From Cupriavidus necator (GTDB lineage: Bacteria > Pseudomonadota > Gammaproteobacteria > Burkholderiales > Burkholderiaceae), in assembly GCF_016127575.1 (NCBI RefSeq), contig NZ_CP066019.1, forward strand, positions 2,310,001-2,342,000: a stretch of DNA of 32,000 bases. Direction: 5' to 3'. A model generated the notes under the pieces. The model was not told the origin of the DNA. It ran no database searches and worked only from the letters and a program-made list of their open reading frames with translations. The position numbers and the translations under genes were made by a program. Positions 2,567-32,000 of the stretch are shown piece by piece (the first letter of the stretch is position 1; every line of letters begins with the position of its first letter).

Positions 2567-2719
2567 TCAGTACAAGACTTCCAGCTCGTCGAACAACTCG
2601 CTGTCCTTCTGCGCCGCCGAGCGCGCGCGGCGCCGGATTTCCTGCAGCAGGCAGTCGGTGAAGCACTGCGCCGCGGGGCTGCGCACCGCGTTATGGCGCG
2701 TGATGATGCCGAGCCGGCT
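2567..2719 (-). pseudogene. Probable 3'-terminal remnant of a LysR-type regulator gene (last ~50 codons only)
   Basis: The C-terminal part of minus ORF 2567..2914 reads SRLGIITRHNAVRSPAAQCFTDCLLQEIRRRA. This resembles the usual LTTR C-terminus (short hydrophobic strand, R..(L)SPAA..F.D.L). Upstream of about 2720 the frame loses any resemblance and runs antisense to the MFS fragment. Confidence 0.4.
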
Positions 2720-16646: not shown

Positions 16647-16671
16647 GATGGTGTGGTGGTGGTGCCGCGCG

Positions 16672-18177: not shown

Positions 18178-18204
18178 CGTCAATCCTTGTCTCGTTGGCG
18201 GGCC

Positions 18205-19194: not shown

Positions 19195-19241
19195 CTCGAT
19201 ATCCCGTTCAGTACCTGGGTTGGACCCGGCTACGCGTTTGC

Positions 19242-19271
19242 AGTATAGGGGCATGACCCGAACCAATGCAA
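19242..19271 (-). promoter_or_regulatory. Candidate sigma70 promoter for the Bug/D-aminoacylase/aminotransferase operon
   Basis: Minus-strand reading: TTGCAT (19271-19266), 18 nt, TATACT (19247-19242), about 48 nt upstream of ATG 19194. TGTTTCA boxes lie immediately upstream. Confidence 0.4.
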
Positions 19272-19365
19272 CATTTGTTTCTTAAATGCTCATCATGAAA
19301 CAATAACGATGCGACGCCGGCACGAATGCCTTTGCCGCAACGGCCCGAACTCCATGAAACAGTCG

Positions 19366-20721
19366 TTACAGCCATCGGGGCGTCGCGCTGCGGCACAGCC
19401 CCTGCGCCTCAAGGAAGCGCGCCGCCGCCAGTGCCTGGCTCTCGAGCCCGGGCGCGGCCACGATCTGGATGCCTGCGGGCAAGCCCTCGCCCGCGCACGG
19501 CGCGGCTACAACGGGCAGGCCCGCCAGCGACAACGGGCGCGTCAGGTGCCCGGCATCGGCACGTGGGCAATAGATGCGGCCGGTGCCGTTGACGGTGTCG
19601 GCACCGATCGGCGTGGCCGCATAGGGCGTCGAAGGGGCCAGCAGCAGGTCGACGTCATCGAACAGCGCCAGCAGCCGCTGCCGCCACGCTGACTGGTACT
19701 GGCGCGCGATGTCATACCAGCCGCGCGGCATCGCCAGCCCGGCCAGGATGCGCTGGCGCACGAAGGCGCTGTAGCCGCCATGGCGCTCGGAGAAGCCCAT
19801 GGCCTGGTGGTTGCGCCCGACTTCGTAGGCGGAGATCACCGAGGCGGCATCGCGCGAACTGTCGGCGTCGGGCAGGTCAATGGTGCGCACCGCGCCAAAG
19901 GCCGAGGCCACGCGCAGCACCGCCGCCTGCACCGCGGGCTCGGCAAAATCGGAAAAGCCGCGGCCGAGCACGCCGACGCGCAGCGTCGCGGCACCACGGC
20001 CTTGCGGATCAGCAGGCGCGTCCACGCCGAGCATTGCCGCATAGGCCAGCGCGAGGTCACAGGCGCTGCCGGCCATCGGGCCGACCGTATCCAGGCTCTG
20101 CGCGTACGGCACGCATCCGGCCAGGGACAACCGCCCCGTGGTCGGGCGCAGCCCCCAGATGCCGCAGAACGCGGCCGGGGCGCGGATCGACCCATTGGTA
20201 TCCGAACCCAGCCCGAACGGCACCACCCCGGCAGCCACCAGCGCCGCGGTGCCGGCCGACGAGCCGCCGGTGATGCGCGACGGATCGAGCGGATTGCGCA
20301 CCGGACCGCCGATCACGTTCTCGCCGGTAGCGCCGCACGCGTATTCGTCCATCGCCGCCAGCGCAACGGGCACCGCGCCCGCGGCGACCAGCGCCTCGAC
20401 CGTATCGGCATGGCGCAGCGCCGGCGGCTCCTGCGCGCGTGGCGCGGCGCCGGCCAGCGTGGCGTGGCCGCGCACGTCCAGCAGGCTCTTCACCACGAAC
20501 GGCACGCCCGCCAGCGGCGGCAGCAGCCGGCCCTGCGCGCGCAGCCGGTCCAGCGCGGCGGCCTGCGCCAGTGCGCTGTCCGCCAGCAGCGCCGAGCAGG
20601 CATTGAGCGGCGCGGCGGCTTCGGCGCGCTGCAGGGCGTCTTGCACCAGGTCGAGGGCAAGCCGCTCGCCGCTGCGTACTTGCGCGGCCATGGCGGCGGC
20701 GGTCGGCGTGTCAGCAACCAT
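19366..20721 (-). CDS. Amidase-signature family amidohydrolase (AtzE/GatA-like), 451 aa
   Basis: ORF 19366..20874 trimmed to ATG 20721 after GGAGGGG. AS signature: GGSSAGTAALVAAGVVPFGLGSDTNGSIRAPAAFCG. The catalytic Lys context is PFVVKSLLDV. Confidence 0.88.
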   Translation of the reverse strand: MVADTPTAAAMAAQVRSGERLALDLVQDALQRAEAAAPLNACSALLADSALAQAAALDRLRAQGRLLPPLAGVPFVVKSLLDVRGHATLAGAAPRAQEPPALRHADTVEALVAAGAVPVALAAMDEYACGATGENVIGGPVRNPLDPSRITGGSSAGTAALVAAGVVPFGLGSDTNGSIRAPAAFCGIWGLRPTTGRLSLAGCVPYAQSLDTVGPMAGSACDLALAYAAMLGVDAPADPQGRGAATLRVGVLGRGFSDFAEPAVQAAVLRVASAFGAVRTIDLPDADSSRDAASVISAYEVGRNHQAMGFSERHGGYSAFVRQRILAGLAMPRGWYDIARQYQSAWRQRLLALFDDVDLLLAPSTPYAATPIGADTVNGTGRIYCPRADAGHLTRPLSLAGLPVVAAPCAGEGLPAGIQIVAAPGLESQALAAARFLEAQGLCRSATPRWL

Positions 20722-20905
20722 GCTGCCCCTCCGCTTGCGCCAGCGCCTGGCGCAGGCCCGCCACCATGGCCGCCATGCCGGCCAGCAGCGCGGCGGCCTG
20801 CTCGCAATCCTGGGGTGCCACCGGCACCTGCAGGCCCGCGGCGGCTTGTGCCACCAGGCCGGCGGGATCGTCATCGCGTGCTTGTGCCATGGTTGCTTGC
20901 GCCAT
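20711..20905 (-). CDS. Small Ala-rich protein, AtzG/DUF4089-like (GatC-like partner of the amidase), 64 aa
   Basis: ATG 20905 lies 3 nt after the MFS stop, and GGAGCTGAGGG spans the end of the MFS gene, its TGA stop and the 3-nt spacer up to the ATG. The stop overlaps the amidase start by 11 nt. It is a helical Ala/Leu-rich protein of about 60 aa, matching the size and position of the small subunit reported for AtzE-type amidases. The family call is an inference. Confidence 0.5.
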   Translation of the reverse strand: MAQATMAQARDDDPAGLVAQAAAGLQVPVAPQDCEQAAALLAGMAAMVAGLRQALAQAEGQHGC

Positions 20906-20908
20906 CCC

Positions 20909-22234
20909 TCAGCTCCGCGATTGCATCAGCTGGCGTGGAATCGCCAGGATCAGCACCGCCGCGGCCAGCATCAGCCCGGCCAGCGCCAGCACGCCCAGCG
21001 AGATGCTGCCGGTGCTCTGCTTGATGCCGCCCATCAGCACCGGGCCGATCAGGCCGGCCAGGCTGGCCGCGCTGTTGATCATGGCAATGCCGCCAGCCGC
21101 GGCGGTGCCGGCCAGCACGCGGCCCGGCAGGCCCCAGAACATCGACAGCGTGGCCATCAGGCCGGAAATGCCGATAGTCAGGAACACCATCGCCATCACC
21201 GTGTTGTGCGGGAACAGCGTGCTCGCCCACATGCCGACGGCGGCCACCAGCAGCGGCAGCGCGGAGTGCAGGCGGCGCTCGCCGGTGCGCTCGGCGTGCG
21301 CGGCGTTGACGTTCATCGCCACGCACGCGACCGCATACGGGATCGCCGTCAGCATGGCGATCTCAAGCGGCGACGACATCCCGGTCGACTGGATGATGGT
21401 GGGCAGCCAGAACACCAGGCCGTAGTTGCCGATATTGAACAGCAGGCAGATCGCCATCAGCATCCACAGGACCGGCGACTTGAGCGCGGCGATGAAGCGG
21501 GTGTTCTTCTTCGCGTTCTCGGTGGTCAGCGTGTGGGTGATGGCGCCCGCCTCGGCCGGCGTGAGCCATGGCGCGGCCTCCGGCGACTCGGGCAGCATGC
21601 GCAACAGCAGCAGGCCCAGCACGATGGCCGGGAGCGCCTCGATCAGGAACATCCACTGCCAGCCTTGCAGCCCGTGCAGGTCATGCGTGGCTGACATCAG
21701 CGCGCCGGAGATCGGGCCGCCCAGCACCATGCCCAGCGGCATCGCCAGGAACAGGATCGACATGATGCGCGACTGCCGGTCGGCCGGGTACCACTTGTTC
21801 AGGTACATCACCGCGGCCGGGAAGAAGCCGGCCTCGGTCACGCCCAGCAGGAAGCGCGCCGCGTAGAACTCCATCGGCGTGGTCACGAACATGGTCGCGG
21901 CGGATACCAGCCCCCACAGGATCATGATGGCCGCCATGCTGCGGCGCATGCCGAGGCGGTAGATCAGCAGGCTGCTGGGCACCTGGCACAGCATGTAGCC
22001 CCAGAAGAAGATGCCCGCGCCCAGGCCATAGACCACGTCGCTCAGCCCCAGCGCCTGCTGCATCTGCAGCTTGGCGAAGCCCACGTTGACCCGGTCCAGG
22101 TAGCTGAAGAAATAGCACAGCACGATAAACGGCACGATGCGGCGCGTGACCTTGGCGAACGCGGCGGCGGCGGCGTCCGGCAACACCGCGGCGTGGCCCG
22201 GGGACTGCGGGATGGCTGGCTTGGCCAGGGACAT
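20909..22234 (-). CDS. MFS transporter, anion:cation symporter (ACS) type, 441 aa
   Basis: ORF 20909..22291 trimmed to ATG 22234 after AAGGAGGA. Motifs: RRIVPFIVLCYFFSYLDRVNVGFAKLQM, GLGAGIFFWGYMLCQVPS. About 12 TM helices. Confidence 0.9.
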   Translation of the reverse strand: MSLAKPAIPQSPGHAAVLPDAAAAAFAKVTRRIVPFIVLCYFFSYLDRVNVGFAKLQMQQALGLSDVVYGLGAGIFFWGYMLCQVPSSLLIYRLGMRRSMAAIMILWGLVSAATMFVTTPMEFYAARFLLGVTEAGFFPAAVMYLNKWYPADRQSRIMSILFLAMPLGMVLGGPISGALMSATHDLHGLQGWQWMFLIEALPAIVLGLLLLRMLPESPEAAPWLTPAEAGAITHTLTTENAKKNTRFIAALKSPVLWMLMAICLLFNIGNYGLVFWLPTIIQSTGMSSPLEIAMLTAIPYAVACVAMNVNAAHAERTGERRLHSALPLLVAAVGMWASTLFPHNTVMAMVFLTIGISGLMATLSMFWGLPGRVLAGTAAAGGIAMINSAASLAGLIGPVLMGGIKQSTGSISLGVLALAGLMLAAAVLILAIPRQLMQSRS

Positions 22235-22300
22235 GATGGATCTCCTCCTTGTACGGGCGCGCGGTATCCGGCGCCATGGAGATGCCATCATAGCGGAGTA

Positions 22301-22340
22301 TGAAACAAACGTTCCACTAACGTTTACACTGAAACAAACG
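22301..22340. promoter_or_regulatory. Repeated TGAAACAAACG boxes plus a perfect palindrome upstream of the MFS/amidase operon
   Basis: TGAAACAAACG occurs at 22301-22311 and 22330-22340 (direct repeat, 29-nt period). AAACGTT-CCACT-AACGTTT lies at 22307-22325. A TATGAT -10 candidate (minus strand) lies at 22292-22287, and the proximal box overlaps a poor -35. Confidence 0.4.
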
Positions 22341-22373
22341 GTTTTATTCCTTCACGTGACGCGGAAGACCCGC

Positions 22374-22406
22374 CAAATGAAAAAGGGCGGCAATGCATGC
22401 CGCCCT
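22374..22406 (-). terminator. Rho-independent terminator of the XRE-PAS regulator gene
   Basis: On the minus strand: GGGCGGCA, loop, TGCCGCCC (22405-22385, 8-bp stem), followed by TTTTTCATTT (22384-22375). It begins 10 nt after the stop at 22416. Confidence 0.7.
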
Positions 22407-22415
22407 GTGGCGCTG

Positions 22416-23504
22416 TCAGGCTGGTGCGCGCGGCTTGTCCGCCGCACGCTTGCGCGGGGCCTTGCCGCCGCCTCTTGCCGGCGGCGCTGCCGGCCCGGTG
22501 ACATCCTGCGAGGCGCCGACCATGGTCAGGGCGTTGCCGTGCTCGTCCAGCGTGACCTCGCCTTCCTCATGGATGTCGCGATGGCTGCCGTCGGGCAGCT
22601 GGATGCGGTAGTTGACACTGTACGGCGCCTTGTCGACGATGGCCGCGCGGATGGCCGCCTGCACGCGCGCGCGGTCCTCCTCGACGATCGACGCCAGGTA
22701 GCGCTCCATGGTCACCTTGAACGCCTGCGGGGCCCAGCCGAAGATGCGGTAGGCCTCGTCGGTCCAGGCGCAGTCGTCGGTCTGGATATTCCAGTACCAG
22801 CCGCCCAGGTGGGCAATCTCCTGCGCCTTGGCCAGCAGCGCCTCGTTCTGGCGCAGCGCAGCCTCGGCGCGGCGCCGCTCGGTGATGTCCAGGCTGACGC
22901 CGATCATCTTGACCGGGCGCTGGTCGAAGTCGCGCACCAGCGTGGCCCGCGACGAGATCCAGCGCGTGGTGTCCCCGTGCACGACGCGGAACTCCCACTC
23001 GTGCATCTCCTGCGCGCCCAGCGTGCGCGCCAGCACCTCGCGCAGGCGCGCGACATCGGCCGGATGCACGCAGGCCCAGAAGTCGTCCATGTTGCGGATG
23101 TGGCGGCCGAACAGCGTGACGTCGTTGGACGAGTAGGTCAGGCCATCGGTCAGCACGTTCCATTCCCAGGTGACGATGCCCGAGACCTCCTGCGCGAACT
23201 TCATGCGCGCCTCGCTCTCCATGATCTCCGCCAGGTGCTTCTGGCGCAGTTCCTTGATGTGTGGGTCAGAGGCGGTGCTGGCCTCCAGGTCGGCGATGGC
23301 CTGCTCGCCGTAGCGCAGCCACAGCCAGTTGACGCCCAGGAAGCGCGCCAGCGCGAGCAGCCGCTCGTATTCGATCTCGCCGCCGCGGGTCCACTTGTGC
23401 ACCGCCGACGGCGATACCGACAGCGCCTCTGCCACCTGCTTGAGCATGATCCTTTTGCCTTCCAGCACCCCCTTCAGGCGCGTGGCAAAAGTGTCTTCCG
23501 TCAT
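22416..23504 (-). CDS. One-component transcriptional regulator: N-terminal XRE/Cro-type HTH plus two PAS domains plus a basic Pro/Ala/Lys/Arg tail
   Basis: HTH: FATRLKGVLEGKRIMLKQVAEALSVSPSAVHKWTRGGEIEYERLLALARFLGVNWLWLRYG. PAS 1: GIVTWEWNVLTDGLTYSSN...EFRVVHGDTTRWISSRATLVRD...MIGVSLDITERRRAE. PAS 2: HLGGWYWNIQTDDCAWTDEAYRIFG...YRIQLPDGSHRDIHEEGEV...MVGASQDVT. The ORF track starts at 23510 (MPM...). The GGAGG spacing favours the second ATG at 23504. Confidence 0.85.
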   Translation of the reverse strand: MTEDTFATRLKGVLEGKRIMLKQVAEALSVSPSAVHKWTRGGEIEYERLLALARFLGVNWLWLRYGEQAIADLEASTASDPHIKELRQKHLAEIMESEARMKFAQEVSGIVTWEWNVLTDGLTYSSNDVTLFGRHIRNMDDFWACVHPADVARLREVLARTLGAQEMHEWEFRVVHGDTTRWISSRATLVRDFDQRPVKMIGVSLDITERRRAEAALRQNEALLAKAQEIAHLGGWYWNIQTDDCAWTDEAYRIFGWAPQAFKVTMERYLASIVEEDRARVQAAIRAAIVDKAPYSVNYRIQLPDGSHRDIHEEGEVTLDEHGNALTMVGASQDVTGPAAPPARGGGKAPRKRAADKPRAPA

Positions 23505-23631
23505 GGGCATCCCCTCCGCTTTTTTTCAACCGATGGTGAATTGAGTAACTCGAACCTTACACCATCACCGCAAATCGCGCGAATTGATAGCCATGGACCA
23601 TCAAGCGAGCAAATTTCATCGGTTTTTTGAA

Positions 23632-23661
23632 TTGCAATACACCTGCGCTCCTCACTAGACT
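23632..23661 (+). promoter_or_regulatory. Candidate sigma70 promoter of the cntA-badh-betA operon
   Basis: TTGCAA (23632-37), 18 nt, TAGACT (23656-61). The same architecture recurs at 29627-29655, at the same distance from the conserved 32-nt box. Confidence 0.45.
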
Positions 23662-23680
23662 TCACTTCACATCACCAACA

Positions 23681-23712
23681 GTAATTTAATTAACTGTTAG
23701 TGAATCGATAAG
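23681..23712 (+). promoter_or_regulatory. Conserved 32-nt box, copy 1 (candidate operator or 5'-UTR element)
   Basis: GTAATTTAATTAAC-tgtt-AGTGAATCGATAAG compares with copy 2 GTAATCTAATTAAC-ctac-AGTGAATCGACAAG. That is 26 of 28 non-spacer positions identical, and the box contains the TTAATTAA palindrome. It lies 19 nt downstream of the candidate -10 and 28 nt upstream of the cntA ATG. Confidence 0.6.
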
Positions 23713-23739
23713 GCAACGAGACCAACAAGGAGACAACCC

Positions 23740-24861
23740 ATGCAAGAGACCACCGCCCCCGCCTGCGGCACCACCCCGCCGCTGGCCTATACGCTGCCGG
23801 CCCACTACTACACCTCGCAGGAAGTCTTCGAGCAGGAGAAGAAGACCATCTTCGCGCGCAGCTGGGTGTGTGTGATGCACAAGAGCCAGGTGGCCGAGAA
23901 CAACCAGTACGCCACAGTGAAAGTGGCCGGCGAGAACGTGTTCGTAGTGCGCGGCCGCGACGGCGTGTTGCGCGCGTTCTACAACGTCTGCCCGCACCGC
24001 GCCCATGAGCTGTTTGCGGATGGCGCGGGCAAGGCCAAGAACGTGATCACTTGCCCGTATCACGCCTGGTCGTTCGGCCTGGACGGCAAGCTGATCCACG
24101 TGCGCAACGCCGAGAACGTGCCGGGCTTCTGCAAGGACAACGCCGGCCTGACGCCGGTGCGCGTGGAAGAATTCTGCGGCCTGGTCTTCGTCAACCTGGA
24201 CATGGACGCGAAACCGCTGGCCGAGCTGGCAGGCGGCCTCAACGACGAGATCCGCGCGCGCTGCCCGGATGTCGACAAGCTGGTGCCCGCGCACAAGCTC
24301 ACCTACGAGATGAAGGCCAACTGGAAGGTGGTGGTCGACAACTACCTGGAATGCCTGCACTGCCAGACCGCGCACCCGGCGCTGGTCGAGTCGATCAGGA
24401 TGGAGACCTACAAGCACGAAGTGCGCGGCCTCTACACCAGCCAGGTCGGCCAGACGCGCTCGGGCAGCGACGCCTTCACCTATGACAGCGACGCCCCCAA
24501 CACCGACTTCGCCGCCTACTGGCTGTGGCCCAACGTGACGCTGAACGTGCTGCCGGGCGATGGCAACTACGGCGTGTTCTACATGTTCCCGGTGGATGCC
24601 GACACCACCATCCAGCACTTCGAGTTCTACTTCCGCGACAGCACGCCCACGGCCGAGCAGGAGCAACTGATCGAGTACTACAAGAACGTGCTCAAGCCCG
24701 AAGACCTGAGCATCGTCGAATCGGTGCAGCGCGGCCTGAAGTCGCGCGGCTACCGCAACGGGCAGGGCCCGCTACTGGTCACCGACGACAAGACCTCCGC
24801 CATCGGCGAGCACGGCGTGCAGCACTTCCAGCAGATGGTGCTCGACGCCCTGGCCGCCTGA
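23740..24861 (+). CDS. cntA: Rieske [2Fe-2S] non-haem-iron oxygenase, CntA/YeaW family (carnitine monooxygenase-type oxygenase component), 373 aa
   Basis: Rieske motif: LRAFYNVCPHRAHEL...KNVITCPYHAWSFGLDG. Catalytic-domain strings VDNYLECLHCQTAHP and VLKPEDLSIVESVQRGLKSRGY match my recollection of E. coli YeaW almost word for word. The length (~373 aa) fits CntA/YeaW rather than GbcA (~430 aa). The RBS is AAGGAGA. The physiological substrate here is not established. Confidence 0.82.
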   Translation: MQETTAPACGTTPPLAYTLPAHYYTSQEVFEQEKKTIFARSWVCVMHKSQVAENNQYATVKVAGENVFVVRGRDGVLRAFYNVCPHRAHELFADGAGKAKNVITCPYHAWSFGLDGKLIHVRNAENVPGFCKDNAGLTPVRVEEFCGLVFVNLDMDAKPLAELAGGLNDEIRARCPDVDKLVPAHKLTYEMKANWKVVVDNYLECLHCQTAHPALVESIRMETYKHEVRGLYTSQVGQTRSGSDAFTYDSDAPNTDFAAYWLWPNVTLNVLPGDGNYGVFYMFPVDADTTIQHFEFYFRDSTPTAEQEQLIEYYKNVLKPEDLSIVESVQRGLKSRGYRNGQGPLLVTDDKTSAIGEHGVQHFQQMVLDALAA

Positions 24862-24889
24862 AACGAACCACCGAACCGGAACCGCAGCA

Positions 24890-26356
24890 ATGATCCTGAC
24901 CCAGCTCTATATCGACGGCCAGTGGCAGTCGCCCATCGACCAAGGCACGCGCGCCATCCTGAGCCCGGCCGACGAGTCCGTGATCGCCCAGGCAGCCGAA
25001 GCCACCCGCGCCGACGCGCGCCTGGCCATCGCCGCTGCGCGCAAGGCCTTCGACGGCCCGTGGCGCCAGACGACGATCCGTGACCGCGCCAGGCTGCTGA
25101 ACAAGATCGCCGAACTGATTGACCGCGATGCCGAGAAGCTCGCCCGACTGGAGTCGCTCAACACCGGCAAGACGCTGACCGAGAGCCGCACCGACATGGG
25201 CGATATCGCCGCCACCTTCCGCTACTTTGCGGGGCTGGTCGCATCCGAGTCGGGCGCCGTCAACGAAGCCCCGCACCATGTGATCAGCCGCACCCTGCGC
25301 GAGCCGGTTGGCGTGTGCGGCCTGATCACGCCGTGGAACTACCCGCTGCTGCAGGCCGCGTGGAAGATCGCGCCCGCGCTGGGCGCCGGCAATACCGTGG
25401 TGATCAAACCCAGCAACCTGACGCCGCTGACCACGCACCACTTCACGCAACTGGTGGCCGAGCTGGACCTGCCGCCGGGCGTGTTCAACCTGGTGACCGG
25501 CGGCGCCGAAGTCGGTGCCGAACTGGCCGAGAGCCTGGACGTGGACCTGGTGTCCTTCACCGGCGGCGCCTATGCCGGCGAAAGCATCATGAAGGCCGCC
25601 ACCGGCAACTTCAAGCGCATCGGCCTGGAGCTGGGCGGCAAGAACCCGAACATCGTGTTTGCCGATGCCGACCTGGACGCAGCGGTCGACTACGCGCTCA
25701 ATGCCGCGTTCTTCCACGCCGGGCAGGTCTGCTCCGCCGGCTCGCGCCTGATGATCGAGGACGGCATCTATGATGCATTCATCAGCCGGCTGGCCGAGCG
25801 CCTGCCGCGCATCGTGATCGGCAACGGCTTCCACGGCGAGACCCAGATGGGCCCGGTGCAGTCGGCGCAACAGCACGAGAAGATCCTGGGCATGGTGCAG
25901 GCCGGCATTGCCGAGGGTGCACGGCTGGTCCACGGCGGCAAGCGGCCGGCTGGCGACGTCTTCAAGACGGGCTACTGGCTGGAACCGACGCTGCTGGCCG
26001 ACGTGACGGCAGACATGAAAATTGCGAAGGAGGAGATTTTCGGGCCGGTGATCACGGCCGAGCGCTTCCGCTCCGAGGAAGAGGTGCTGCGTGCCGCCAA
26101 CGACACCCCGTACGGCCTGGCCGGCGCGGTCTGGACCCGCGACCTGGACAAGGCCAACCGGATGTCGCGCGGGCTGCGCTTCGGCACGGTGTGGGTCAAC
26201 GACTACCACCCGTACTTCCCGGAAGCGCCGTGGGGCGGCTACAAGGCGAGCGGCATCGGCCGCGAGCTGGCCCGCATCGGCCTGGACGAGTACACCGAAC
26301 TCAAGCACAGCTATATCAACCTGGCCCCCAAGGCGATGGGCTGGTTCGGCGCCTGA
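24890..26356 (+). CDS. betB: NAD(P)+-dependent betaine aldehyde dehydrogenase (GbsA/ALDH9-type), 488 aa
   Basis: Motifs: LESLNTGKTL, EPVGVCGLITPWNYPLLQAAWKIAPALGAGNTVVIKPS, ELGGKNPNIVF (catalytic Glu), FFHAGQVCSAGSRL (catalytic Cys), EEIFGPV, YGLAGAVWT, APWGGYKASGIGRELA. Overall it looks closest to Bacillus GbsA-type BADH as I recall it. Confidence 0.82.
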   Translation: MILTQLYIDGQWQSPIDQGTRAILSPADESVIAQAAEATRADARLAIAAARKAFDGPWRQTTIRDRARLLNKIAELIDRDAEKLARLESLNTGKTLTESRTDMGDIAATFRYFAGLVASESGAVNEAPHHVISRTLREPVGVCGLITPWNYPLLQAAWKIAPALGAGNTVVIKPSNLTPLTTHHFTQLVAELDLPPGVFNLVTGGAEVGAELAESLDVDLVSFTGGAYAGESIMKAATGNFKRIGLELGGKNPNIVFADADLDAAVDYALNAAFFHAGQVCSAGSRLMIEDGIYDAFISRLAERLPRIVIGNGFHGETQMGPVQSAQQHEKILGMVQAGIAEGARLVHGGKRPAGDVFKTGYWLEPTLLADVTADMKIAKEEIFGPVITAERFRSEEEVLRAANDTPYGLAGAVWTRDLDKANRMSRGLRFGTVWVNDYHPYFPEAPWGGYKASGIGRELARIGLDEYTELKHSYINLAPKAMGWFGA

Positions 26357-26441
26357 GCGCAGCTGACTTCGCAATCGCGCGCGCGGCAGGCCCTCCCCCG
26401 GGCCGCCACGCACGGCGTCAAGCAAACAAGGAGATTGCACC

Positions 26442-28178
26442 ATGCAGGCAATCCATGAGTACGACTACATCATCGTCGGCGCAGGCTCGGCCGGCTGCGT
26501 GCTGGCCGCGCGGCTGACCGAGGATGCCGATGTCTCGGTGCTGCTGCTGGAAGCGGGCGGCCCCGACTGGCGCCTGGACTGGCGCACCCAGATGCCGGCC
26601 GCGCTGGCGTATCCGCTGCAGGGCACCACCTATAACTGGGCCTACGTGACCGAGCCCGAGCCGCATATGAACAACCGGCGCATGACGCAGGGCCGCGGCA
26701 AGGGGCTGGGCGGTTCGTCGCTGATCAACGGCATGGTCTATATCCGCGGCAACGCGATGGACTACGACGGCTGGGCCGAAAACCGTTCGCTGGAGAACTG
26801 GAGCTACGCCGACTGCCTGCCCTATTTCCGCAAGGCCGAGACCTATGACAAGGGCGCCAACGACTACCACGGCGGCAACGGCCCGCTGCACGTGACCACG
26901 CCCAAGGCCGATATCAGCCCGCTGTTCCGCGCCTTTATCAAGGCCGGCGAGCAGGCCGGCTATGGCCAGACCGATGACCTGAACGGCTACAAGCAGGAAG
27001 GCTTCGGCCCGATGGACCGCACCACCACCGCGCGCGGGCGCCGCTGTAGCACCTCGCTGGCCTATCTGGACCAGGCCAAGGACCGGCCCAACCTGACCGT
27101 GCATACGCGCGCGCTGGCGGACCGCATCCTGTTCTCCGGCCAGCGCGCCATCGGCGTCTCGTACATCCAGGGCGACCATGTGCGCGAAGCGCGTGCGCGC
27201 CGGGAAGTGATCGTCAGCAACGGCGCGATCGCCTCGCCGCAACTGCTGCTGCGCTCGGGCGTGGGCAATGCGGACGAGCTGCGCGCATTTGGCATCGAGT
27301 CGGTGGCAGACCTGAAGGGCGTCGGCGAGAACCTGCAGGACCACCTCGAGATGTACCTGCAGTACGAATGCACCAAGCCCGTATCGCTGTACCCGGCGCT
27401 GAAGTGGTGGAACAAGCCCGCGATTGGCGTCGAATGGTACCTGCGCGGCACCGGCACCGCGGCCTCCAACCACTTCGAGGCGGGCGGCTTTATCCGCAGC
27501 AGCGATGACTTTGCCTGGCCCAACCTGCAGTACCACTTCATCCCGCTGGCGATGAACTACGACGGCAGCAACCCGGTGCAGTCGCATGGCTTCCAGTGCC
27601 ACGTGGGCTCGATGCGCTCGCCCAGCACCGGCTTTGTCAAGCTGGCCAGCCGCGACCCGCGCGTGAAGCCGCGCCTGCTGTTCAACTACATGGCGCACGA
27701 CGTCGACTGGCGCGAGTTCCGCGCCGCGGTGCGCCTGACGCGCGAGATCATCGGCCAGCAGGCGATGGACCAGTTCCGCGGCCGCGAGATCAAGCCCGGC
27801 ATGATGATCCAGAGCGATGCCGAGATCGACGCCTTCGTGCGCGAGCATGCCGAGACCGCGCTGCACCCGTCCTGCACCTGCAAGATGGGCGACGCTTCCG
27901 ACCCGATGGCGGTGGTCGACAACCAGGGCCGCGTGCACGGGCTGTCTGGCCTGCGCGTGGTCGATGCCTCGATCATGCCGAAGATCATCACCGGCAACCT
28001 GAACGCGCCCACCATCATGATGGCCGAGAAGCTGGCCGACGTGATCCGCGGCCGCGCACCGCTGCAACGCTCGACGGCGCCTTACTACAAGGCCGCCACC
28101 GCGCGCGGCGGGGCGCAGGCAGACGCGGAGCGGCATCCGCCAGCCACTGCGCGAATGCCGATGCCGATGCCCGCCTGA
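26442..28178 (+). CDS. betA: Choline dehydrogenase (GMC oxidoreductase), 578 aa
   Basis: [22 protein letters not shown] is the FAD fold. Long strings match my recollection of E. coli BetA: [107 protein letters not shown]. The RBS is AAGGAGA. It has a C-terminal tail of about 20 aa ending MPMPMPA. Confidence 0.9.
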
Positions 28179-28347
28179 CCAGGCGGCGCGGCGCGCGGGC
28201 TTCCCGCCAGAACCCCTGACCGACGCATGTGCTGCCGGGACTTCGGTCCCCGGCGGGCAGCGTGCGTCCGGTCGGCGCGCCGCGCACCCACACCACAAAG
28301 CCGGCTACCCAGAACAAACCCAGACCGGCTGCAAGGAGGAGACTTCC

Positions 28348-29238
28348 ATGCTGCGCAAATACTTTGATTCAAGACGGGCCCTGCAAGGCGCCCTGCCCCT
28401 GCTGCTGTGCCAGGCGCTGAGCGCGCAGGCGCAGACCAGTGCCGAGGCCGAAACCAGGCTGGCCGTGGCGCCGGTGCCGCAGGTCACGGCGACCGTGCCG
28501 CCGGCCGAGGCCGCATCGCCAGCGCCGCTGAGCGCCAACCTGACCCTGACATCGCAATACGTATCGCGCGGCTTCCGCCAGACCTGGGGCAGGCCTGCGG
28601 TGCAGGGCGGCATCGACTACGCCCACCCGAGCGGCTTTTCCGCGGGCACGTGGATGTCGAGCATCAGCGACAAGTTCATCGAGGGCGGCACCGTCGAATG
28701 GGATCTGTATGCCGGCTACACCGGCACCATTGGCGACTTCACCTATGCCGGGCAGGTCTACTACTACCTGTACCCGGGCGCGAAACTGCAGTACGCGCAG
28801 ACCAAGTACAACTACGGCGAAGCCGTCGCGTCGCTGACGTACAAGTGGTTCAACGTCAAGTACTGGCTGACCTATACGCCCGACTACTTCGGCTACAACA
28901 GCGCCTCGCTGCTCGCCGGCAATGACCTGCACAGCCGCGGCTCCGGCTACCTGGATATCAACGGCACCTTCGACCTGGGCCACGGCGTCACGCTGCTGCT
29001 GCACTACGGCCAGGAGCGCGTGCGCAACTTTGCCGCCTACAACTTCCGCGACGTGCGCGTGGCGCTGTCCAAGGCCTTCGAGGGCAGCTGGACCGTGACC
29101 GGCGCCTATACCCGCGGCTGGGGGCGTACCGACGTCTACGACAAGTACACCACCGGGGCGCTGGATTCGTCCGGCAACCCGTCCGTTTCCAACCCGCTGA
29201 AAAGCACGTTCCTGGTCTCGGTGACCAAGACGTTCTGA
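28348..29238 (+). CDS. TorF-family (TIGR02001-like) putative outer-membrane porin, 296 aa
   Basis: Signal peptide ...LLLCQALSAQA. Family-typical N-terminal strands: ANLTLTSQYVSRGFRQTWGRPAVQGGIDYAHPSGFSAGTWMSSI and WDLYAGYTG. It has an alternating beta-strand pattern and a terminal aromatic (TKTF). The RBS is AAGGAGGAGA. Confidence 0.75.
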   Translation: MLRKYFDSRRALQGALPLLLCQALSAQAQTSAEAETRLAVAPVPQVTATVPPAEAASPAPLSANLTLTSQYVSRGFRQTWGRPAVQGGIDYAHPSGFSAGTWMSSISDKFIEGGTVEWDLYAGYTGTIGDFTYAGQVYYYLYPGAKLQYAQTKYNYGEAVASLTYKWFNVKYWLTYTPDYFGYNSASLLAGNDLHSRGSGYLDINGTFDLGHGVTLLLHYGQERVRNFAAYNFRDVRVALSKAFEGSWTVTGAYTRGWGRTDVYDKYTTGALDSSGNPSVSNPLKSTFLVSVTKTF

Positions 29239-29277
29239 CGGCAATCTTCAACCGCTGTTTTACCGCTTCCTACCACC

Positions 29278-29580
29278 ATGGCCTCCCTGGGTCTTACCGA
29301 CGCGACCGGACTTGTCGGCGTTGCCGCCTACGTTGCCGCGCATTTTGCCGTGCAGGTCCTGCACAAATCCCCGACCGGCAGGCTGGCCGTCGTCCTCAAC
29401 GTGATCGGGCCGAGCTGCATCCTGATCTCGCTGACCGGCGCCTTCAACCTGGCGTCGTTCCTGACCCAGTGCTTCTGGCTGGGGCTGACGCTGCTGGGCT
29501 GGTGGCGCAACCGGCGGGCGGGGCATGCGGTGGTGGAAACGCTGGGCGGACCGCGCCCGGGACAGCCCGTGCAGCAGTAA
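29278..29580 (+). CDS. Small 3-TM membrane protein of unknown function, 100 aa
   Basis: Three hydrophobic segments: GLVGVAAYVAAHFAVQVL, LAVVLNVIGPSCILISL, ASFLTQCFWLGLTLLGWW. Codon third-position GC matches its neighbours. There is no clear SD. The topology resembles small SemiSWEET/CBU_0592-like proteins, but that is unverified. Confidence 0.5.
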   Translation: MASLGLTDATGLVGVAAYVAAHFAVQVLHKSPTGRLAVVLNVIGPSCILISLTGAFNLASFLTQCFWLGLTLLGWWRNRRAGHAVVETLGGPRPGQPVQQ

Positions 29581-29626
29581 CGAAGAGACGGCCAGGACGC
29601 TTGGCAACGACGATACAAATCTTCCG

Positions 29627-29655
29627 TTGCCTTGGCTCCCAGCCGTTTCTATACT
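29627..29655 (+). promoter_or_regulatory. Candidate sigma70 promoter of the APC permease-cntB unit
   Basis: TTGCCT (29627-32), 17 nt, TATACT (29650-55), followed by TCAC-rich sequence as at the cntA promoter. The conserved box starts 18 nt downstream. Confidence 0.45.
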
Positions 29656-29673
29656 CACCGCGAAACACTATTG

Positions 29674-29705
29674 GTAATCTAATTAACCTACAGTGAATCG
29701 ACAAG
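29674..29705 (+). promoter_or_regulatory. Conserved 32-nt box, copy 2
   Basis: GTAATCTAATTAAC-ctac-AGTGAATCGACAAG; see copy 1 at 23681-23712. Confidence 0.6.
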
Positions 29706-29923
29706 AAACCCGAAAGCCTGAGACCCGTAACGGGCCGCATGGCAACCCCGGGATGACAACAGGAGACAAGGATGAGAAACGCCCCCAGAATCCCCGCCAG
29801 CCATTCCCGACCGTCGTAACCCCCGGCAGGCAGTACCGCAACGTACCCACCCAGACCGCAGACGGCAGACCGTGACGGAGCGCAGCTCCAGATAAACGGC
29901 AACCCGGGAAGCAAGGAGACATC

Positions 29924-31567
29924 GTGTATTCACAGAAAGACGTGCTGTCGATCGGCGCGCAGGCGCCGATCGCCCCCGCCCAACCGCAGCAGCAAACCCA
30001 ATCGCATGAACTGCAGCGCACCCTGACCTGGAAGGATGCCTTCTGGGTCACCAGCGGCGTGCCCGCGGGCGTGCTCTTCACCATCGGCGGCGTGTCCGCC
30101 ACCATCGGCAACCCGGCCTGGGTGATCTGGATCCTCGCCATCCTGGTCGGCTTTGCGCAGTGCTTCGTCTATGCCGAGATCTCGGGCCTGTATCCGCACA
30201 AATCCGGCGGCGCCTCGGTGTATGGCGCGCTCGGCTGGGTGCGCTACAGCAAGTTTGTCGCACCGGTCTCGGTGTGGTGCAACTGGGTGGCCTGGTCGCC
30301 GATGCTGGCGCTGGGCACCAGCCTCGCCGCCGGCTACATGCTGAGCGCGCTGTTCCCGCCCGATTCGGTCATCAACACCTGGCAACTGACACTGGTGGAC
30401 CTGGGCTTTGTCAGCAAAGGCCTGACGCTGCGGGTGAACTCCACCTTCATCCTGGCCACCGCCTTCCTGCTGGTCACCTTCAAGCTGCAGCACAGCGGCG
30501 CCTCGGCCGCGGCCACCACGCAGCGCATCCTGGGCATTGCCTCGCTGACGCCGCTGGTGCTGATCGCGCTGGTGCCGATGTTCACCGGCGACATGCCGTC
30601 CACCAACTTCCTGCCGCTGCTGCCGCTGACCCATGACGGCGCCGGCGCCCCGGTGCTGGGCGGCTGGAACGCCGCCGGCATCAGCACCGCCATGGGCGCG
30701 ATGTTCCTGGCGTGCTGGTCGACCTTCGGCTTCGAGACCGCGGTCTGCTACACCCGCGAGTTCAAGGATCCGCAGAAGGACACCTTCAAGGCGATCTTCT
30801 GGTCCGGCGTGCTGTGCCTGTTCATGTTCATCGCGGTGCCGATCGCCTTCCAGGGCTCGCTGGGCCTGTCGGGCATGCTGGAACCGGCCATCGTCGACGG
30901 CTCCGGCGTGGGCGCGGCCATGGCCAAGTTCGTCGGCGGCGGCGCGGTGGTGTTCAACGTGATCGTGGTGATGCTGGTGCTGGCGATCCTGCTGATCGTG
31001 ATGACCTCGATGATGGGTTCGTCGCGCACGCTGTACCAGGCCTCGGTCGACGGCTGGCTGCCGCGCTACCTCTCGCACGTGAACGAGCACGGCTCGCCCA
31101 CGCGCGCGATGTGGACGGACCTGGTGTTCAACCTGTTCCTGCTGCTGATGTCGAACTACATGGCAGTGCTGTCGATCAGCAACGTCTGCTACATGATCTT
31201 CGTGTTCCTGAACCTGCAGTCGGGCTGGATCCACCGCATGGACCGCCCGGACTGGGCCCGCCCGTACAAGTGCAAGAACTGGCTGCTGGCACTGGGCGCG
31301 TTCTTCGGCTTCTTCGACCTGGCCTTCGTCGGCGCCGGCGCCAACTTCCAGGGCGAGCACACGCTGCGCAACGGCCTGATCGCCGCGCTGCTGATCGTGC
31401 CGGTGTTCGTGTACCGCCACTACATCCAGGACAAGGGCCGCTTCCCCGAGTCGATGCGCCGCGACATGGAGCTGCCCAATGCGCGCGCCGGCGTGCTGCC
31501 CTACGTGGCGCTGGTCGTCGGCGGGCTGGTGGTGTGGATCGCCGCCAGGCTGACGGTGATCACCTGA
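29924..31567 (+). CDS. APC-superfamily permease (amino acid/amine transporter), 547 aa
   Basis: GTG start 7 nt after AAGGAGA. TWKDAFWVTSGVPAGVLFTIGG, YAEISGLYPHKSGGASVYG and SMMGSSRTLYQASVDGWLPR are typical APC strings. About 12-13 TM helices. Confidence 0.85.
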   Translation: MYSQKDVLSIGAQAPIAPAQPQQQTQSHELQRTLTWKDAFWVTSGVPAGVLFTIGGVSATIGNPAWVIWILAILVGFAQCFVYAEISGLYPHKSGGASVYGALGWVRYSKFVAPVSVWCNWVAWSPMLALGTSLAAGYMLSALFPPDSVINTWQLTLVDLGFVSKGLTLRVNSTFILATAFLLVTFKLQHSGASAAATTQRILGIASLTPLVLIALVPMFTGDMPSTNFLPLLPLTHDGAGAPVLGGWNAAGISTAMGAMFLACWSTFGFETAVCYTREFKDPQKDTFKAIFWSGVLCLFMFIAVPIAFQGSLGLSGMLEPAIVDGSGVGAAMAKFVGGGAVVFNVIVVMLVLAILLIVMTSMMGSSRTLYQASVDGWLPRYLSHVNEHGSPTRAMWTDLVFNLFLLLMSNYMAVLSISNVCYMIFVFLNLQSGWIHRMDRPDWARPYKCKNWLLALGAFFGFFDLAFVGAGANFQGEHTLRNGLIAALLIVPVFVYRHYIQDKGRFPESMRRDMELPNARAGVLPYVALVVGGLVVWIAARLTVIT

Positions 31568-31574
31568 CGGCTCC

Positions 31575-31601
31575 GGCAGGCCGGCCCGGTGCCGGCCTGC
31601 C
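31575..31601 (+). other. Intercistronic GC stem-loop between the permease and cntB
   Basis: GGCAGGCCGG-cccggtg-CCGGCCTGCC is a perfect 10-bp stem starting 8 nt after the permease stop. It is followed by a C/T-rich tract (no clean U-run) and then the cntB RBS. Confidence 0.35.
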
Positions 31602-31646
31602 CCCCTTCCCGATTTCCCTGCTTTCCCTGAATTCCGAGGTACCGCC

Positions 31647-32000
31647 ATGACTGACACGCTCCGCGTGCGCGTCGGCCGCGTCGAGCCGCTGGCCGCCGGC
31701 ATCAAGCGCTTCACCCTGCAACCCTGCGACGGCGGCGCGCTGCCCGCCTTCGACAGCGGCAGCCACGTGGTCGTCCATATGGACGGCGGCCGGCTGCGCA
31801 ACGCCTATTCGCTGACCAGCACGCTGGGCGAGCCCGGCCACTACCAGATCGCAGTGCGGCTGGAAGAGGCTTCGCGCGGCGGCTCGCGCTATATGCACGA
31901 GCAGGTCGGCGAAGGCGACGAACTGCATATCGGCGCGCCCGGCAACCTGTTCAGCCTGGACCACGGCGCCGGCCGCCACCTGCTGATCGCCGGCGGCATC
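31647..32000 (+). CDS. cntB: PDR/VanB-type flavin reductase with (expected) C-terminal 2Fe-2S domain, CntB/YeaX family; N-terminal 118 aa only (runs off the window)
   Basis: Not in the ORF track because it is edge-truncated. Hand translation: MTDTLRVRVGRVEPLAAGIKRFTLQPCDGGALPAFDSGSHVVVHMDGGRLRNAYSLTSTLGEPGHYQIAVRLEEASRGGSRYMHEQVGEGDELHIGAPGNLFSLDHGAGRHLLIAGGI. The strings LPAF..GSHV.V.M, NAYSL, YQIAVRLEE.SRGGSR and LFIAGGIG-type match my recollection of E. coli YeaX. Confidence 0.82.
   Translation, partial: MTDTLRVRVGRVEPLAAGIKRFTLQPCDGGALPAFDSGSHVVVHMDGGRLRNAYSLTSTLGEPGHYQIAVRLEEASRGGSRYMHEQVGEGDELHIGAPGNLFSLDHGAGRHLLIAGGI

Follow-up and report, generated by a model that had tools for sequence, protein, structure and literature searches.

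A set of linked genes on chromosome 2 of Cupriavidus necator H16 (AM260480.1) may encode an undescribed O2-dependent route from choline or betaine to trimethylamine. The window analysed here is a stretch of 32,000 nucleotides of that chromosome, in which a CntA-type Rieske oxygenase and its putative reductase are interleaved with genes of choline oxidation and transport. The scheme that fits best runs from choline through betaine aldehyde and glycine betaine to trimethylamine and glyoxylate, the genes forming a self-contained, horizontally shared choline catabolic island in which a single XRE-PAS regulator works through a repeated operator. We hold this reading tentatively, at a probability of roughly 45%.

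Organization and conservation of the island

The features of the island are listed below by window coordinates, strand and identity.

22416..23510, minus strand: XRE-type HTH regulator with two PAS domains (Pfam HTH_3, PAS_3, PAS_4), divergent from the oxygenase operon
23535..23569, no strand assigned: operator-like box GGTGAATTGAGTAAC...CCTTACACCATCACC close to where the regulator gene begins, its sequence conserved across loci of Cupriavidus and Crenobacter
23632..23661, plus strand: promoter-like TTGCAA-18-TAGACT upstream of the oxygenase operon, read from the sequence and aligning with the permease promoter
23681..23712, plus strand: operator box 1, GTAATTTAATTAACTGTTAGTGAATCGATAAG, partly palindromic with an AT-rich core, a match to the repeated pattern
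23740..24861, plus strand: Rieske monooxygenase of the CntA family (group Va), divergent subclade, 373 aa, with Rieske and Ring_hydroxyl_A domains
24890..26356, plus strand: BADH-type NAD(P) aldehyde dehydrogenase (ALDH); best family BADH TIGR01804, best PDB match S. aureus BetB
26442..28178, plus strand: choline dehydrogenase BetA, a GMC flavoprotein (TIGR01810 887.6, cut-off 732.1)
28348..29238, plus strand: TorF/Gcw_chp outer-membrane porin (PF09694 154.6; TIGR02001 118.2, cut-off 47.15)
29278..29580, plus strand: CBU_0592-family small membrane protein (NF047864 80.2, cut-off 25)
29627..29655, plus strand: promoter-like TTGCCT-17-TATACT of the permease-reductase unit, a scan match; TATACT is conserved in clade loci
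29674..29705, plus strand: operator box 2, GTAATCTAATTAACCTACAGTGAATCGACAAG, the second match to the repeated pattern, 18 nt past the -10 element and so arranged like box 1
29706..29923, plus strand: conserved 218-nt leader containing a 15-codon upstream ORF
29924..31567, plus strand: APC-superfamily permease of the TmoP family (NF053774 788.5, cut-off 690)
31647..32000, plus strand: CntB/YeaX-type reductase (FMN/NAD/[2Fe-2S]), N-terminal 118 codons, the gene being cut by the window end

The gene set, its order and its coordinates, with everything from oxygenase to reductase on the plus strand, are as the preliminary description gave them, and the coordinates also agree with its placing of oxygenase and reductase in two transcription units 6.8 kb apart (oxygenase stop at 24861, reductase start at 31647). 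In a species census the module was found in at least six Cupriavidus species, at least two of Crenobacter and at least one of Pseudoduganella, and the eight-gene module is kept at ~70-100% identity across these genera. The expected co-occurrence of betA and cntA was borne out, the oxygenase being accompanied by BetA, a BADH-type ALDH, an APC permease and the reductase in all three genera; this conserved linkage upholds the suggestion of a new functional context for the CntA family. A literature search found no publication on this cluster type, nor any growth, expression or enzyme assay of it.

A divergent CntA-family oxygenase

The oxygenase matches the Acinetobacter baumannii CntA structure 6y8j over residues 11-368 (408 bits, E 3e-121) and is ~50% identical to that CntA over its full length, whereas the GbcA model gives 147.6 against a cut-off of 670, as anticipated for a CntA-like rather than a GbcA/BmoA-like protein. 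It contains the Rieske motif C84-x-H86...C105-x-x-H108 and retains E205, H208, H213, D323, Y203, C206 and C209, the cation-pi tyrosine being Y203 in CntA numbering and Y202 in H16. In a simple neighbour-joining distance tree without support values, the H16 clade forms a long-stemmed branch, sister to all classical CntA/YeaW sequences, and identity falls from 88-98% inside the clade to at most 55% for the next homologues. The pocket carries the changes F216L, Y295F and F319L, at sites that are near-invariant among 113 classical sequences; 15 of the 104 classically invariant positions are altered in the H16 clade, three of the six invariant pocket residues among them (Fisher p = 0.038). The comparisons of phylogeny and substrate pocket that had been envisaged thus set this oxygenase apart, in a subclade of its own whose pocket is remodelled. 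F295 and L319 recur in a second CntA-like lineage, from Alphaproteobacteria, in which a choline-dehydrogenase-like GMC gene likewise comes next after the oxygenase gene.

Carnitine and gamma-butyrobetaine are coordinated in classical CntA through a polar contact with Tyr295 (PMC7948474), and the altered pattern, including Y295F, fits a shorter or different substrate. The pocket would become less polar and less bulky and gain nothing that would evidently anchor a short carboxylate, and these changes therefore do not specifically predict glycine betaine. Classical CntA enzymes have medium side-activity on glycine betaine according to PMC9508527, which cites Kalnins 2018, and this would offer an evolutionary starting point for the proposed route.

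Similarity to CntA along the full length, with every catalytic residue kept, could mean that the enzyme is still a carnitine/gamma-butyrobetaine monooxygenase and that a single regulator in the island controls two quaternary-amine pathways that are independent of each other, one making betaine from choline, for osmoprotection or catabolism, the other releasing trimethylamine from carnitine. Classical loci, too, have an ALDH gene separating cntA from cntB, and an XRE-PAS regulator is often present. We nevertheless consider this unlikely, since Y295F, where 113 of 115 other homologues have Tyr, would lose the polar contact to both substrates (PMC7948474), the island's sole ALDH is BADH-type and shares only 35-39% identity with its counterpart at classical cntA loci, and the H16 clade lies outside the classical branch. 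Furthermore, Crenobacter cavernae has a classical CntA alongside the H16-type enzyme, which argues for distinct functions of the two.

The position of the oxygenase next to betaine-forming enzymes, the label 'choline monooxygenase' given to its relatives in some sources and the membership of plant CMO in group Va (PMC7948474) would all suit a pathway that releases no trimethylamine, the enzyme being either a glycine betaine N-demethylase analogous to GbcA or a plant-CMO-like choline hydroxylase feeding the BADH. We regard such a pathway as very improbable. Demethylases have Asn at the Tyr203 position and bind the substrate carboxylate on the iron, whereas the group-Va Tyr positions a chain carbon and not an N-methyl group (PMC7948474); the retention of Tyr203 therefore disfavours the demethylase scheme proposed in the preliminary description. 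The low GbcA model score points the same way, no dgc or sox genes for dimethylglycine processing lie within the island, and a CMO-like role would duplicate that of BetA.

BetA and the aldehyde dehydrogenase

Judged by its sequence, BetA is clearly a choline dehydrogenase, with 919 bits to the oxygen-dependent choline dehydrogenase structure 9lq0 and identities of 84% to the BetA of Sphaerotilus and 80.5% to that of Paludibacterium. The ALDH scores 603 on TIGR01804, below the BADH equivalog cut-off of 668.6, and 531 bits against its best PDB match, the S. aureus betaine aldehyde dehydrogenase. The canonical choline/betaine cluster of Sphaerotilus has, adjoining betA, an ALDH of 76% identity that itself scores 594.6 on TIGR01804, and the BetA and ALDH of H16 are close orthologues of that pair.

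The same three enzyme classes would also suffice for direct cleavage of choline to trimethylamine and glycolaldehyde, followed by oxidation of the C2 fragment via glycolate to glyoxylate by the ALDH and the GMC enzyme. The less polar pocket left by Y295F would suit a carboxylate-free substrate, and classical CntAs have trace activity on choline (PMC9508527). Against this stand the score of BetA above its equivalog cut-off, its match to the choline dehydrogenase structure and its 80-84% identity to canonical BetA, as well as an ALDH of the BADH rather than the glycolaldehyde/lactaldehyde type. Glycolate, moreover, is usually oxidized by GlcDEF and not by a GMC enzyme, and we find this route highly doubtful.

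A longer substrate, also offered in the preliminary description (homocholine/beta-alanine betaine or 4-trimethylaminobutanol/gamma-butyrobetaine, cleavage following oxidation by the BetA-like and BADH-like enzymes), fits the enzyme logic of alcohol to aldehyde to betaine to C-N cleavage and the relatedness of BADH-type ALDHs to aminoaldehyde dehydrogenases (PRK13473, 497 bits), but has little chance of being correct, given a BetA that passes as a choline dehydrogenase equivalog and has close orthologues in canonical choline clusters, a Y295F change that speaks against a carboxylate at gamma-butyrobetaine length, and alcohols that are not known to be abundant as natural substrates.

Membrane proteins and reductase

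The porin has an N-terminal signal peptide and is found in the Cupriavidus and Pseudoduganella loci and missing from those of Crenobacter. Hydropathy analysis gives the CBU_0592 protein about three hydrophobic segments, and a homologue also follows betA in Sphaerotilus (58% identity) and Paludibacterium (54%). The permease belongs to the APC superfamily, as first described, and is more precisely a member of the TmoP (TMAO permease) family. Its homologues lie within the dgcAB-gbcAB-betC cluster of Burkholderia thailandensis (71-72% identity) and divergent to betA-CBU_0592 in Paludibacterium (73%). Both also pass the TmoP cut-off and, since they do so in betaine/choline clusters, the substrate range of the family is probably broader than TMAO. 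The H16 permease probably imports choline, glycine betaine or a similar trimethylammonium compound, choline or betaine being a more likely substrate than TMAO. The full reductase in AM260480.1 has 317 aa with DmmA-like_N, NAD_binding_1 and Fer2 domains, matches phthalate dioxygenase reductase 2pia with 187 bits and is 46-55% identical to reductases adjoining classical cntA.

A shared promoter and operator module

Every clade locus has the regulator gene (72-100% identity) upstream of the oxygenase gene and in divergent orientation. Homologues of 42-50% identity flank classical cntA in 19 of the loci surveyed, so that the earlier view of an XRE-PAS regulator as foreign to carnitine clusters was wrong. 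The pattern TAATTAAC-N4-AGTGAATCGA is matched at exactly two places in the 32 kb, 23687 and 29680, against a chance expectation of 0, and both copies of the box lie 18-19 nt downstream of a -35/-10-like pair; the same promoter/box module precedes both units, as had been claimed. TTGCCT-17-TATACT was the sole sigma-70-like site found by a scan of 22300-32000, and TTGCAA-18-TAGACT, with 8 of 12 consensus positions matched, falls short of the threshold of that scan. Its -10 element, TAGACT, is kept across clade loci, and box 1 is kept, with variation, in other clade loci. We infer that the XRE-PAS regulator acts at this repeated operator, and the box at 23535..23569 may likewise serve as an operator.

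The upstream ORF of the leader (29772-29819, 15 codons, MRNAPRIPASHSRPS) has a strong Shine-Dalgarno sequence. The 218-nt leader has no match in Rfam, and its folding energy is not better than that of shuffled sequence (z = +0.46); any role for the leader or its ORF is speculative.

Proposed pathway

In the proposed route from choline to trimethylamine, choline would cross the outer membrane via the TorF-type porin and the inner membrane via the TmoP-family permease. BetA, perhaps helped by the small CBU_0592 protein, would oxidize it to betaine aldehyde, which the BADH-type ALDH would convert to glycine betaine. The divergent oxygenase would receive electrons from the CntB-type reductase of the second transcription unit, hold the trimethylammonium head by cation-pi stacking on the conserved Tyr and hydroxylate the N-adjacent carbon, the product collapsing to trimethylamine and glyoxylate. 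Glyoxylate would then enter central metabolism and trimethylamine would exit the cell. The use of glycine betaine as the substrate, the products and the transport specificity are predictions of this model. Against it is its poor yield compared with canonical demethylation, as all nitrogen and three carbons are lost as trimethylamine.

Comparison with known systems

The closest relatives are the CntAB/YeaWX systems of A. baumannii and E. coli, also two-component, with a ~370-aa Rieske oxygenase lacking a beta subunit and a PDR-type reductase. The oxygenases share, at ~50% identity, the Rieske motif, the 2-His-1-Asp iron site, the bridging Glu, the Cys pair and the cation-pi Tyr, but the H16 enzyme is on a separate sister clade with three pocket substitutions. 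The order in those clusters is cntA-ALDH-cntB, with an ALDH of malic/succinic semialdehyde type, whereas in H16 the ALDH is BADH-type and the oxygenase and reductase genes are far apart in two units; the H16 island also adds BetA, the porin, the CBU_0592 protein and the APC permease, and has no BCCT transporter.

Canonical aerobic choline/betaine catabolism (for example in Pseudomonas, B. thailandensis and on a Sphaerotilus plasmid) combines betAB with gbcAB, dgcAB and soxBDAG. The Sphaerotilus cluster has the BetA/ALDH/CBU_0592 trio (84/76/58% identical to H16) and that of B. thailandensis the permease family in common with the H16 island. GbcAB, DgcAB, Sox, ETF, PurU and GlyA are, however, absent from the island, where the group-Vb GbcA is replaced by a group-Va CntA-type oxygenase.

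TmoP of Methylocella silvestris resembles the H16 permease, which exceeds the equivalog cut-off of that family, but the H16 gene does not adjoin tmm or tdm. CutCD (choline TMA-lyase) and GrdHI (glycine betaine reductase) are anaerobic, oxygen-sensitive glycyl-radical or selenoprotein systems. If our model is right, the island would share with them the overall conversion of choline or betaine to trimethylamine, by means of an enzyme unrelated to them in sequence, an O2- and NADH-dependent Rieske monooxygenase (PMC7948474).

Gene content of the island

The oxygenase encoded in the window matches C. necator H16 chromosome 2 (AM260480.1) residue for residue, and other C. necator strains carry the island with the same flanking genes as H16. 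ORF calling and third-position G+C (the sequence is 68% G+C), together with Pfam and NCBIfam scans, gave the genes below, in agreement with the gene list, order and coordinates of the preliminary description.

22416-23510, minus strand, divergent: XRE-HTH/2xPAS regulator
23740-24861: Rieske/Ring_hydroxyl_A oxygenase, 373 aa
24890-26356: aldehyde dehydrogenase (ALDH), BADH-type
26442-28178: GMC flavoprotein (BetA)
28348-29238: TorF/Gcw_chp porin with a signal peptide
29278-29580: small membrane protein of the CBU_0592 family
29924-31567: APC permease
31647 to beyond the window end: reductase with flavin, NAD and [2Fe-2S] domains, 317 aa in the source genome

The 22 kb upstream hold genes unrelated to the island: TonB receptors, ABC-2 transporters, a CoA-transferase, an HpcH-type lyase, an MCP, an aminotransferase, an amidohydrolase, TctC, an AtzE-like amidase and an MFS transporter, with no betaine, dimethylglycine, sarcosine or methylamine genes found in this part of the window (1-22 kb). 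Directly upstream of the island, the minus-strand cluster at 15309-22291 (MFS transporter, AtzE-family amidase, TctC receptor, amidohydrolase, class-III aminotransferase and a 64-aa ORF that the source genome annotates) resembles an operon for the breakdown of amides or ureides, so far uncharacterised; its amidase scores just below the family cut-offs (423.2 against 425.75 and 443 against 461). Further away, a 243-aa ORF (2693-3424, plus strand) matches only the C-terminal half of MFS/Sugar_tr models, which could mean a truncated transporter gene or a start called at the wrong place.

Choline oxidation enzymes

BetA passes the cut-off of TIGR01810 (887.6 against 732.1) and matches a solved choline dehydrogenase (9lq0) with 919 bits. 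The ALDH scores below the cut-offs of TIGR01804 (603 against 668.6) and PRK13252 (470 against 593); in the PDB it is matched best by betaine aldehyde dehydrogenases, and the ALDH of a canonical choline cluster on a Sphaerotilus plasmid is likewise sub-threshold on the BADH model (594.6, against 603 for H16). The H16 ALDH, BetA and CBU_0592 proteins are 76, 84 and 58% identical, respectively, to the trio in that Sphaerotilus cluster. Together, these matches make conversion of choline to glycine betaine the best-supported function of BetA and the ALDH.

A CBU_0592 protein follows betA in three contexts, namely H16 (29278-29580), the Sphaerotilus plasmid (L001, 15187-15429) and Paludibacterium (L091, 524-790), the last being a minimal permease/betA pair. 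This suggests that the protein is an as yet unrecognised accessory to choline dehydrogenase, for example a membrane anchor or electron-transfer partner.

The oxygenase belongs to the CntA family

Along its whole length the oxygenase matches the protein of the A. baumannii CntA crystal structure (408 bits, E 3e-121, about 50% identity), unambiguously so as a sequence match. It has the Rieske [2Fe-2S] motif C84-P-H86...C105-P-Y-H108 and, in CntA numbering (used below for all other residues), keeps the bridging E205 and the iron-binding H208, H213 and D323 (PMC7948474). Y203, which makes a cation-pi contact with trimethylammonium, and C206 and C209, a pair that is also a criterion of group Va (PMC7948474, PMC10952381), are present in every member of the H16 clade, the divergent CntA-family oxygenases that resemble the H16 enzyme. 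Assignment to GbcA/BmoA (group Vb) fails, and the enzyme is CntA-like as first described: it scores 147.6 against a cut-off of 670 on the GbcA model NF058607, with only the N-terminal Rieske half aligning, its length is 373 aa against about 420 aa, and it has Tyr rather than Asn at position 203. A GbcA-like protein of Sphaerotilus has Asn at the equivalent position.

The CntA substrate pocket is formed by polar contacts from Y225, N270 and Y295 and by the hydrophobic residues F258, Y315 and F319 (Quareshy et al., PMC7948474). The H16 oxygenase carries the substitutions F216L, Y295F and F319L. These are invariant in its clade (F295, with L215 at position 216 and L318 at position 319), whereas classical CntA/YeaW-type sequences, in which these pocket residues coordinate carnitine and gamma-butyrobetaine (Tyr295 through a polar contact), have F, Y and F in at least 113 of 115. 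A set of 104 positions is at least 97% conserved among 113 classical homologues; only at 15 of them has the H16 group fixed another residue, and these cover three of the six invariant pocket residues (Fisher p = 0.038). Other fixed changes include Y207L, beside the iron ligand H208, G260A and M268T.

A search of 5.8 billion proteins returned five clusters 88-89% identical to the H16 oxygenase, all others being at most 55% identical. A neighbour-joining tree without support values sets the H16 clade on a long stem as the sister group of every classical CntA/YeaW sequence, and the clade of biochemically characterised enzymes, which holds A. baumannii CntA and Klebsiella and E. coli YeaW, excludes the H16 oxygenase. 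Crenobacter cavernae encodes two CntA proteins, one H16-type and one classical. The comparison of pocket residues and the phylogeny that the preliminary description had proposed thus point to a distinct subclade with a pocket changed at positions 216, 295 and 319. We conclude from these sequence comparisons that the oxygenase is probably a specificity class of its own within the CntA family, and not an orthologue of carnitine monooxygenase. The pocket substitutions alone do not predict glycine betaine as the substrate.

The reductase combines DmmA-like_N, NAD_binding_1 and Fer2 domains in one polypeptide, the arrangement of the CntB/YeaX class IA (PDR-type), is 46-55% identical to reductases beside classical cntA, and matches 2pia and 7ylr.

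Conservation of the island

A scan of one genome per species gave at least 584 relatives, and the best 80 loci were compared with the eight H16 proteins by tblastn. Among these 80, every locus with an oxygenase at least 89% identical keeps the regulator, oxygenase, ALDH, BetA, CBU_0592 protein and reductase, so that the proposed co-occurrence of betA with cntA holds in these loci. Carriers listed are Cupriavidus lacunae, Cupriavidus nantongensis, Cupriavidus sp. amp6, a Cupriavidus MAG, Crenobacter luteus, Crenobacter cavernae and a Pseudoduganella sp., with Cupriavidus taiwanensis as a further carrier. The permease is present in all the island loci listed but that of Crenobacter luteus, and the porin in all except those of Crenobacter. 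A megablast search of plasmids gave the ALDH-betA pair of Sphaerotilus as its only match and did not find the island itself.

In Pseudoduganella sp. UC29_106 (L012, 10001-18307) the island is present with its oxygenase, ALDH, BetA and permease genes each split into several ORFs, reflecting either pseudogenisation or indel errors of long-read assembly; this fragmented locus was omitted from the tree.

Regulator, operator-like boxes and permease leader

The XRE-PAS regulator had been thought foreign to carnitine clusters. This was wrong: XRE-HTH/PAS homologues 42-50% identical to the H16 protein flank at least 19 classical cntA-ALDH-cntB operons in Pseudomonas, Burkholderia, Cupriavidus, Achromobacter and Pandoraea (compared loci L020, L022, L025-L029, L031-L035, L038, L042-L044 and L052-L054). 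The regulator type therefore looks typical of the family and is no novelty of the island. In the literature searched we found no description of an XRE-PAS regulator of classical cntA operons.

The oxygenase and the permease-reductase units are each preceded by a promoter-like element followed by an operator-like box.

23632-23661: promoter-like TTGCAA-18-TAGACT, ahead of the box at 23681-23712
29627-29655: promoter-like TTGCCT-17-TATACT, ahead of the box at 29674-29705

The motif TAATTAAC-N4-AGTGAATCGA occurs exactly twice in the 32-kb window, at 23687 and 29680, where no occurrence is expected, confirming that the promoter/box module common to both units is real. Both copies lie inside the longer box GTAATyTAATTAAC-N4-AGTGAATCGAyAAG, which at both elements starts 18-19 nt past the -10-like hexamer. 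A third, related box (23535-23569) adjoins the regulator's own start. Variants of all three boxes are kept in other Cupriavidus species and in Crenobacter, a conservation visible only when the pattern is read degenerately; among the loci of other species compared, the exact pattern matched C. necator strains only. It is a reasonable inference that the XRE-PAS protein co-regulates both units.

The leader of the permease-reductase unit (29706-29923, 218 nt) is highly conserved across Cupriavidus and contains a 15-codon uORF (29772-29819, MRNAPRIPASHSRPS) preceded by a strong GGAGA Shine-Dalgarno sequence. A uORF occupies the equivalent leader position in Crenobacter, and in the Cupriavidus MAG (L010) the uORF peptide differs while the nucleotides TCCCGACCGT are retained; a predicted pairing joins these to CGGGAA, which stands immediately before the Shine-Dalgarno sequence of the permease. 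Translational attenuation might thus operate in this leader. An Rfam scan of 22000-32000 (E <= 1) gave no match, indicating that the leader is not a known riboswitch. Its folding energy was no better than that of shuffled sequence (z = +0.46), and helices proposed by alifold show too little variation to be judged.

The permease

The permease passes the cut-off of NF053774, the model of the Methylocella TMAO permease TmoP (788.5 against 690). The same cut-off, however, is passed by permeases in non-TMAO contexts, beside genes for glycine betaine/dimethylglycine catabolism, for choline dehydrogenase and for other amine catabolism, so the match does not fix TMAO as the substrate (passing loci: B. 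thailandensis L087, 8001-9656; Paludibacterium L091; and three further compared loci, L089, L090 and L076). A homologue 71-72% identical lies inside the B. thailandensis dgcAB-ETF-gbcAB-OpuAC-...-betC cluster, another (73%) is divergent from betA-CBU_0592 in Paludibacterium, and a third (57%) stands behind another CntA-like gene in a Burkholderiaceae MAG; the context in Azohydromonas was uninformative. The best reading is a family that transports small trimethylammonium compounds, for which the name 'trimethylamine N-oxide permease' may be too specific, and by these contexts the H16 member is likeliest to be a choline or betaine importer. We rejected TMAO, suggested by the names TmoP and TorF, as the island substrate, because TmoP members occur in choline/betaine clusters and TMAO would leave BetA and BADH without a role.

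Proposed pathway and alternatives

The sequence evidence describes what appears to be a Rieske system of CntAB type from a subclade of its own, joined to choline oxidation and with transport and regulatory parts of its own. The earlier interpretation is thereby supported as regards a distinct CntA-type subclade wired to choline oxidation, and not as regards the foreignness of the regulator. The simplest complete pathway, because BetA and BADH would make glycine betaine, would be choline to betaine aldehyde to glycine betaine to trimethylamine plus glyoxylate; we give it a probability of roughly 45%. The oxygenase would hydroxylate the chain carbon beside the nitrogen, as CntA does, with release of trimethylamine, a site for which the retained group-Va Tyr argues. 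Classical CntA orthologues reportedly show medium activity on glycine betaine (PMC9508527, citing Kalnins et al. 2018), and such a side activity would offer a plausible evolutionary origin for a betaine-cleaving enzyme.

Retention of carnitine activity, which the similarity to CntA and the intact catalytic residues could accommodate, is unlikely: loss of the Tyr295 contact argues against a carboxylate at carnitine length. We consider demethylation, or hydroxylation in the manner of CMO, quite improbable; a demethylase could also draw on glycine betaine from BetA and BADH, but group-Vb demethylases have Asn in place of the group-Va Tyr and bind the substrate carboxylate to iron (PMC7948474). 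Direct cleavage of choline by the oxygenase would suit the less polar pocket (Y295F) and is given equally little credence, BetA and the ALDH being best read as turning choline into glycine betaine. Longer amino-alcohols, which the kinship of BADH-type ALDHs with aminoaldehyde dehydrogenases would accommodate, are just as poor a candidate beside the BetA score and the close BetA orthologues in canonical choline clusters.

Returning to betaine cleavage, a fuller and slightly more tentative version is that the CntAB pair could be a dedicated glycine betaine monooxygenase (+ O2 + NADH -> trimethylamine + glyoxylate), forming with BetA and BADH an undescribed aerobic choline-to-TMA route in which the permease is maybe a substrate/trimethylamine exchanger. 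In the literature searched, from which subscription journals were largely absent, we found neither a published account of this cluster type nor results obtained with H16 on choline, betaine or trimethylamine. The 'choline dehydrogenase' of the H16 literature is a different gene, H16_A3663.

The association of oxygenase and choline dehydrogenase seems, by gene order, to be repeated in an independent alphaproteobacterial CntA-like lineage (F295 and L319), where the oxygenase gene is directly followed by a GMC gene of the choline-dehydrogenase subfamily and an OpuAC-type ABC transporter lies ahead. At least four pocket types occur among the CntA-like sequences compared, so that metagenome 'cntA' counts probably lump several substrate specificities.

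At least two further, uncharacterised CntA-like lineages were seen among the compared loci. Type C (L070, L071, L075, L084, L086) has F/Y203, N270, F295, I/V/L315 and L319, and adjoins a choline-dehydrogenase-like GMC gene (L071, L075) and an OpuAC ABC transporter (L071). Type D (L066, L076-L079, L081-L083, L085) has F203, W270, Q/M295, Q/L315 and L319, and lies beside a BetI-type TetR and a TmoP-family permease (L076) or a LysR and a BCCT transporter (L085).

To our knowledge, the formation of trimethylamine from choline or glycine betaine is so far ascribed to strictly anaerobic enzymes (CutCD, GrdH), and carnitine and gamma-butyrobetaine are the assigned substrates of the one aerobic oxygenase known to release it. 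If the H16 branch is specialised for choline-derived substrates, soils and the rhizosphere would gain an O2-dependent trimethylamine source, sequence-based 'cntA' counts from metagenomes would be shown to mix enzymes of different substrates, and positions 216/295/319 would be a natural three-residue switch for specificity studies of quaternary-amine Rieske oxygenases. The hypothesis is directly testable in the host, since the genetics of C. necator H16 are tractable.

Comparison with known clusters

In classical loci cntA, ALDH and cntB are mostly adjacent, with cntB mostly 1.1-2.8 kb downstream of the cntA start among the loci surveyed, whereas in the H16 island 6.8 kb and a second promoter lie between the oxygenase and the reductase; the classical ALDH, in the usual architecture a semialdehyde dehydrogenase, is only 35-39% identical to the BADH-type ALDH of H16. 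The textbook cluster of Sphaerotilus carries gbcAB, dgc, sox, glyA, purU and choline ABC transporter genes. Betaine cleavage would account for the island's doing without dgc or sox genes and for its spread between genera as a self-contained unit.
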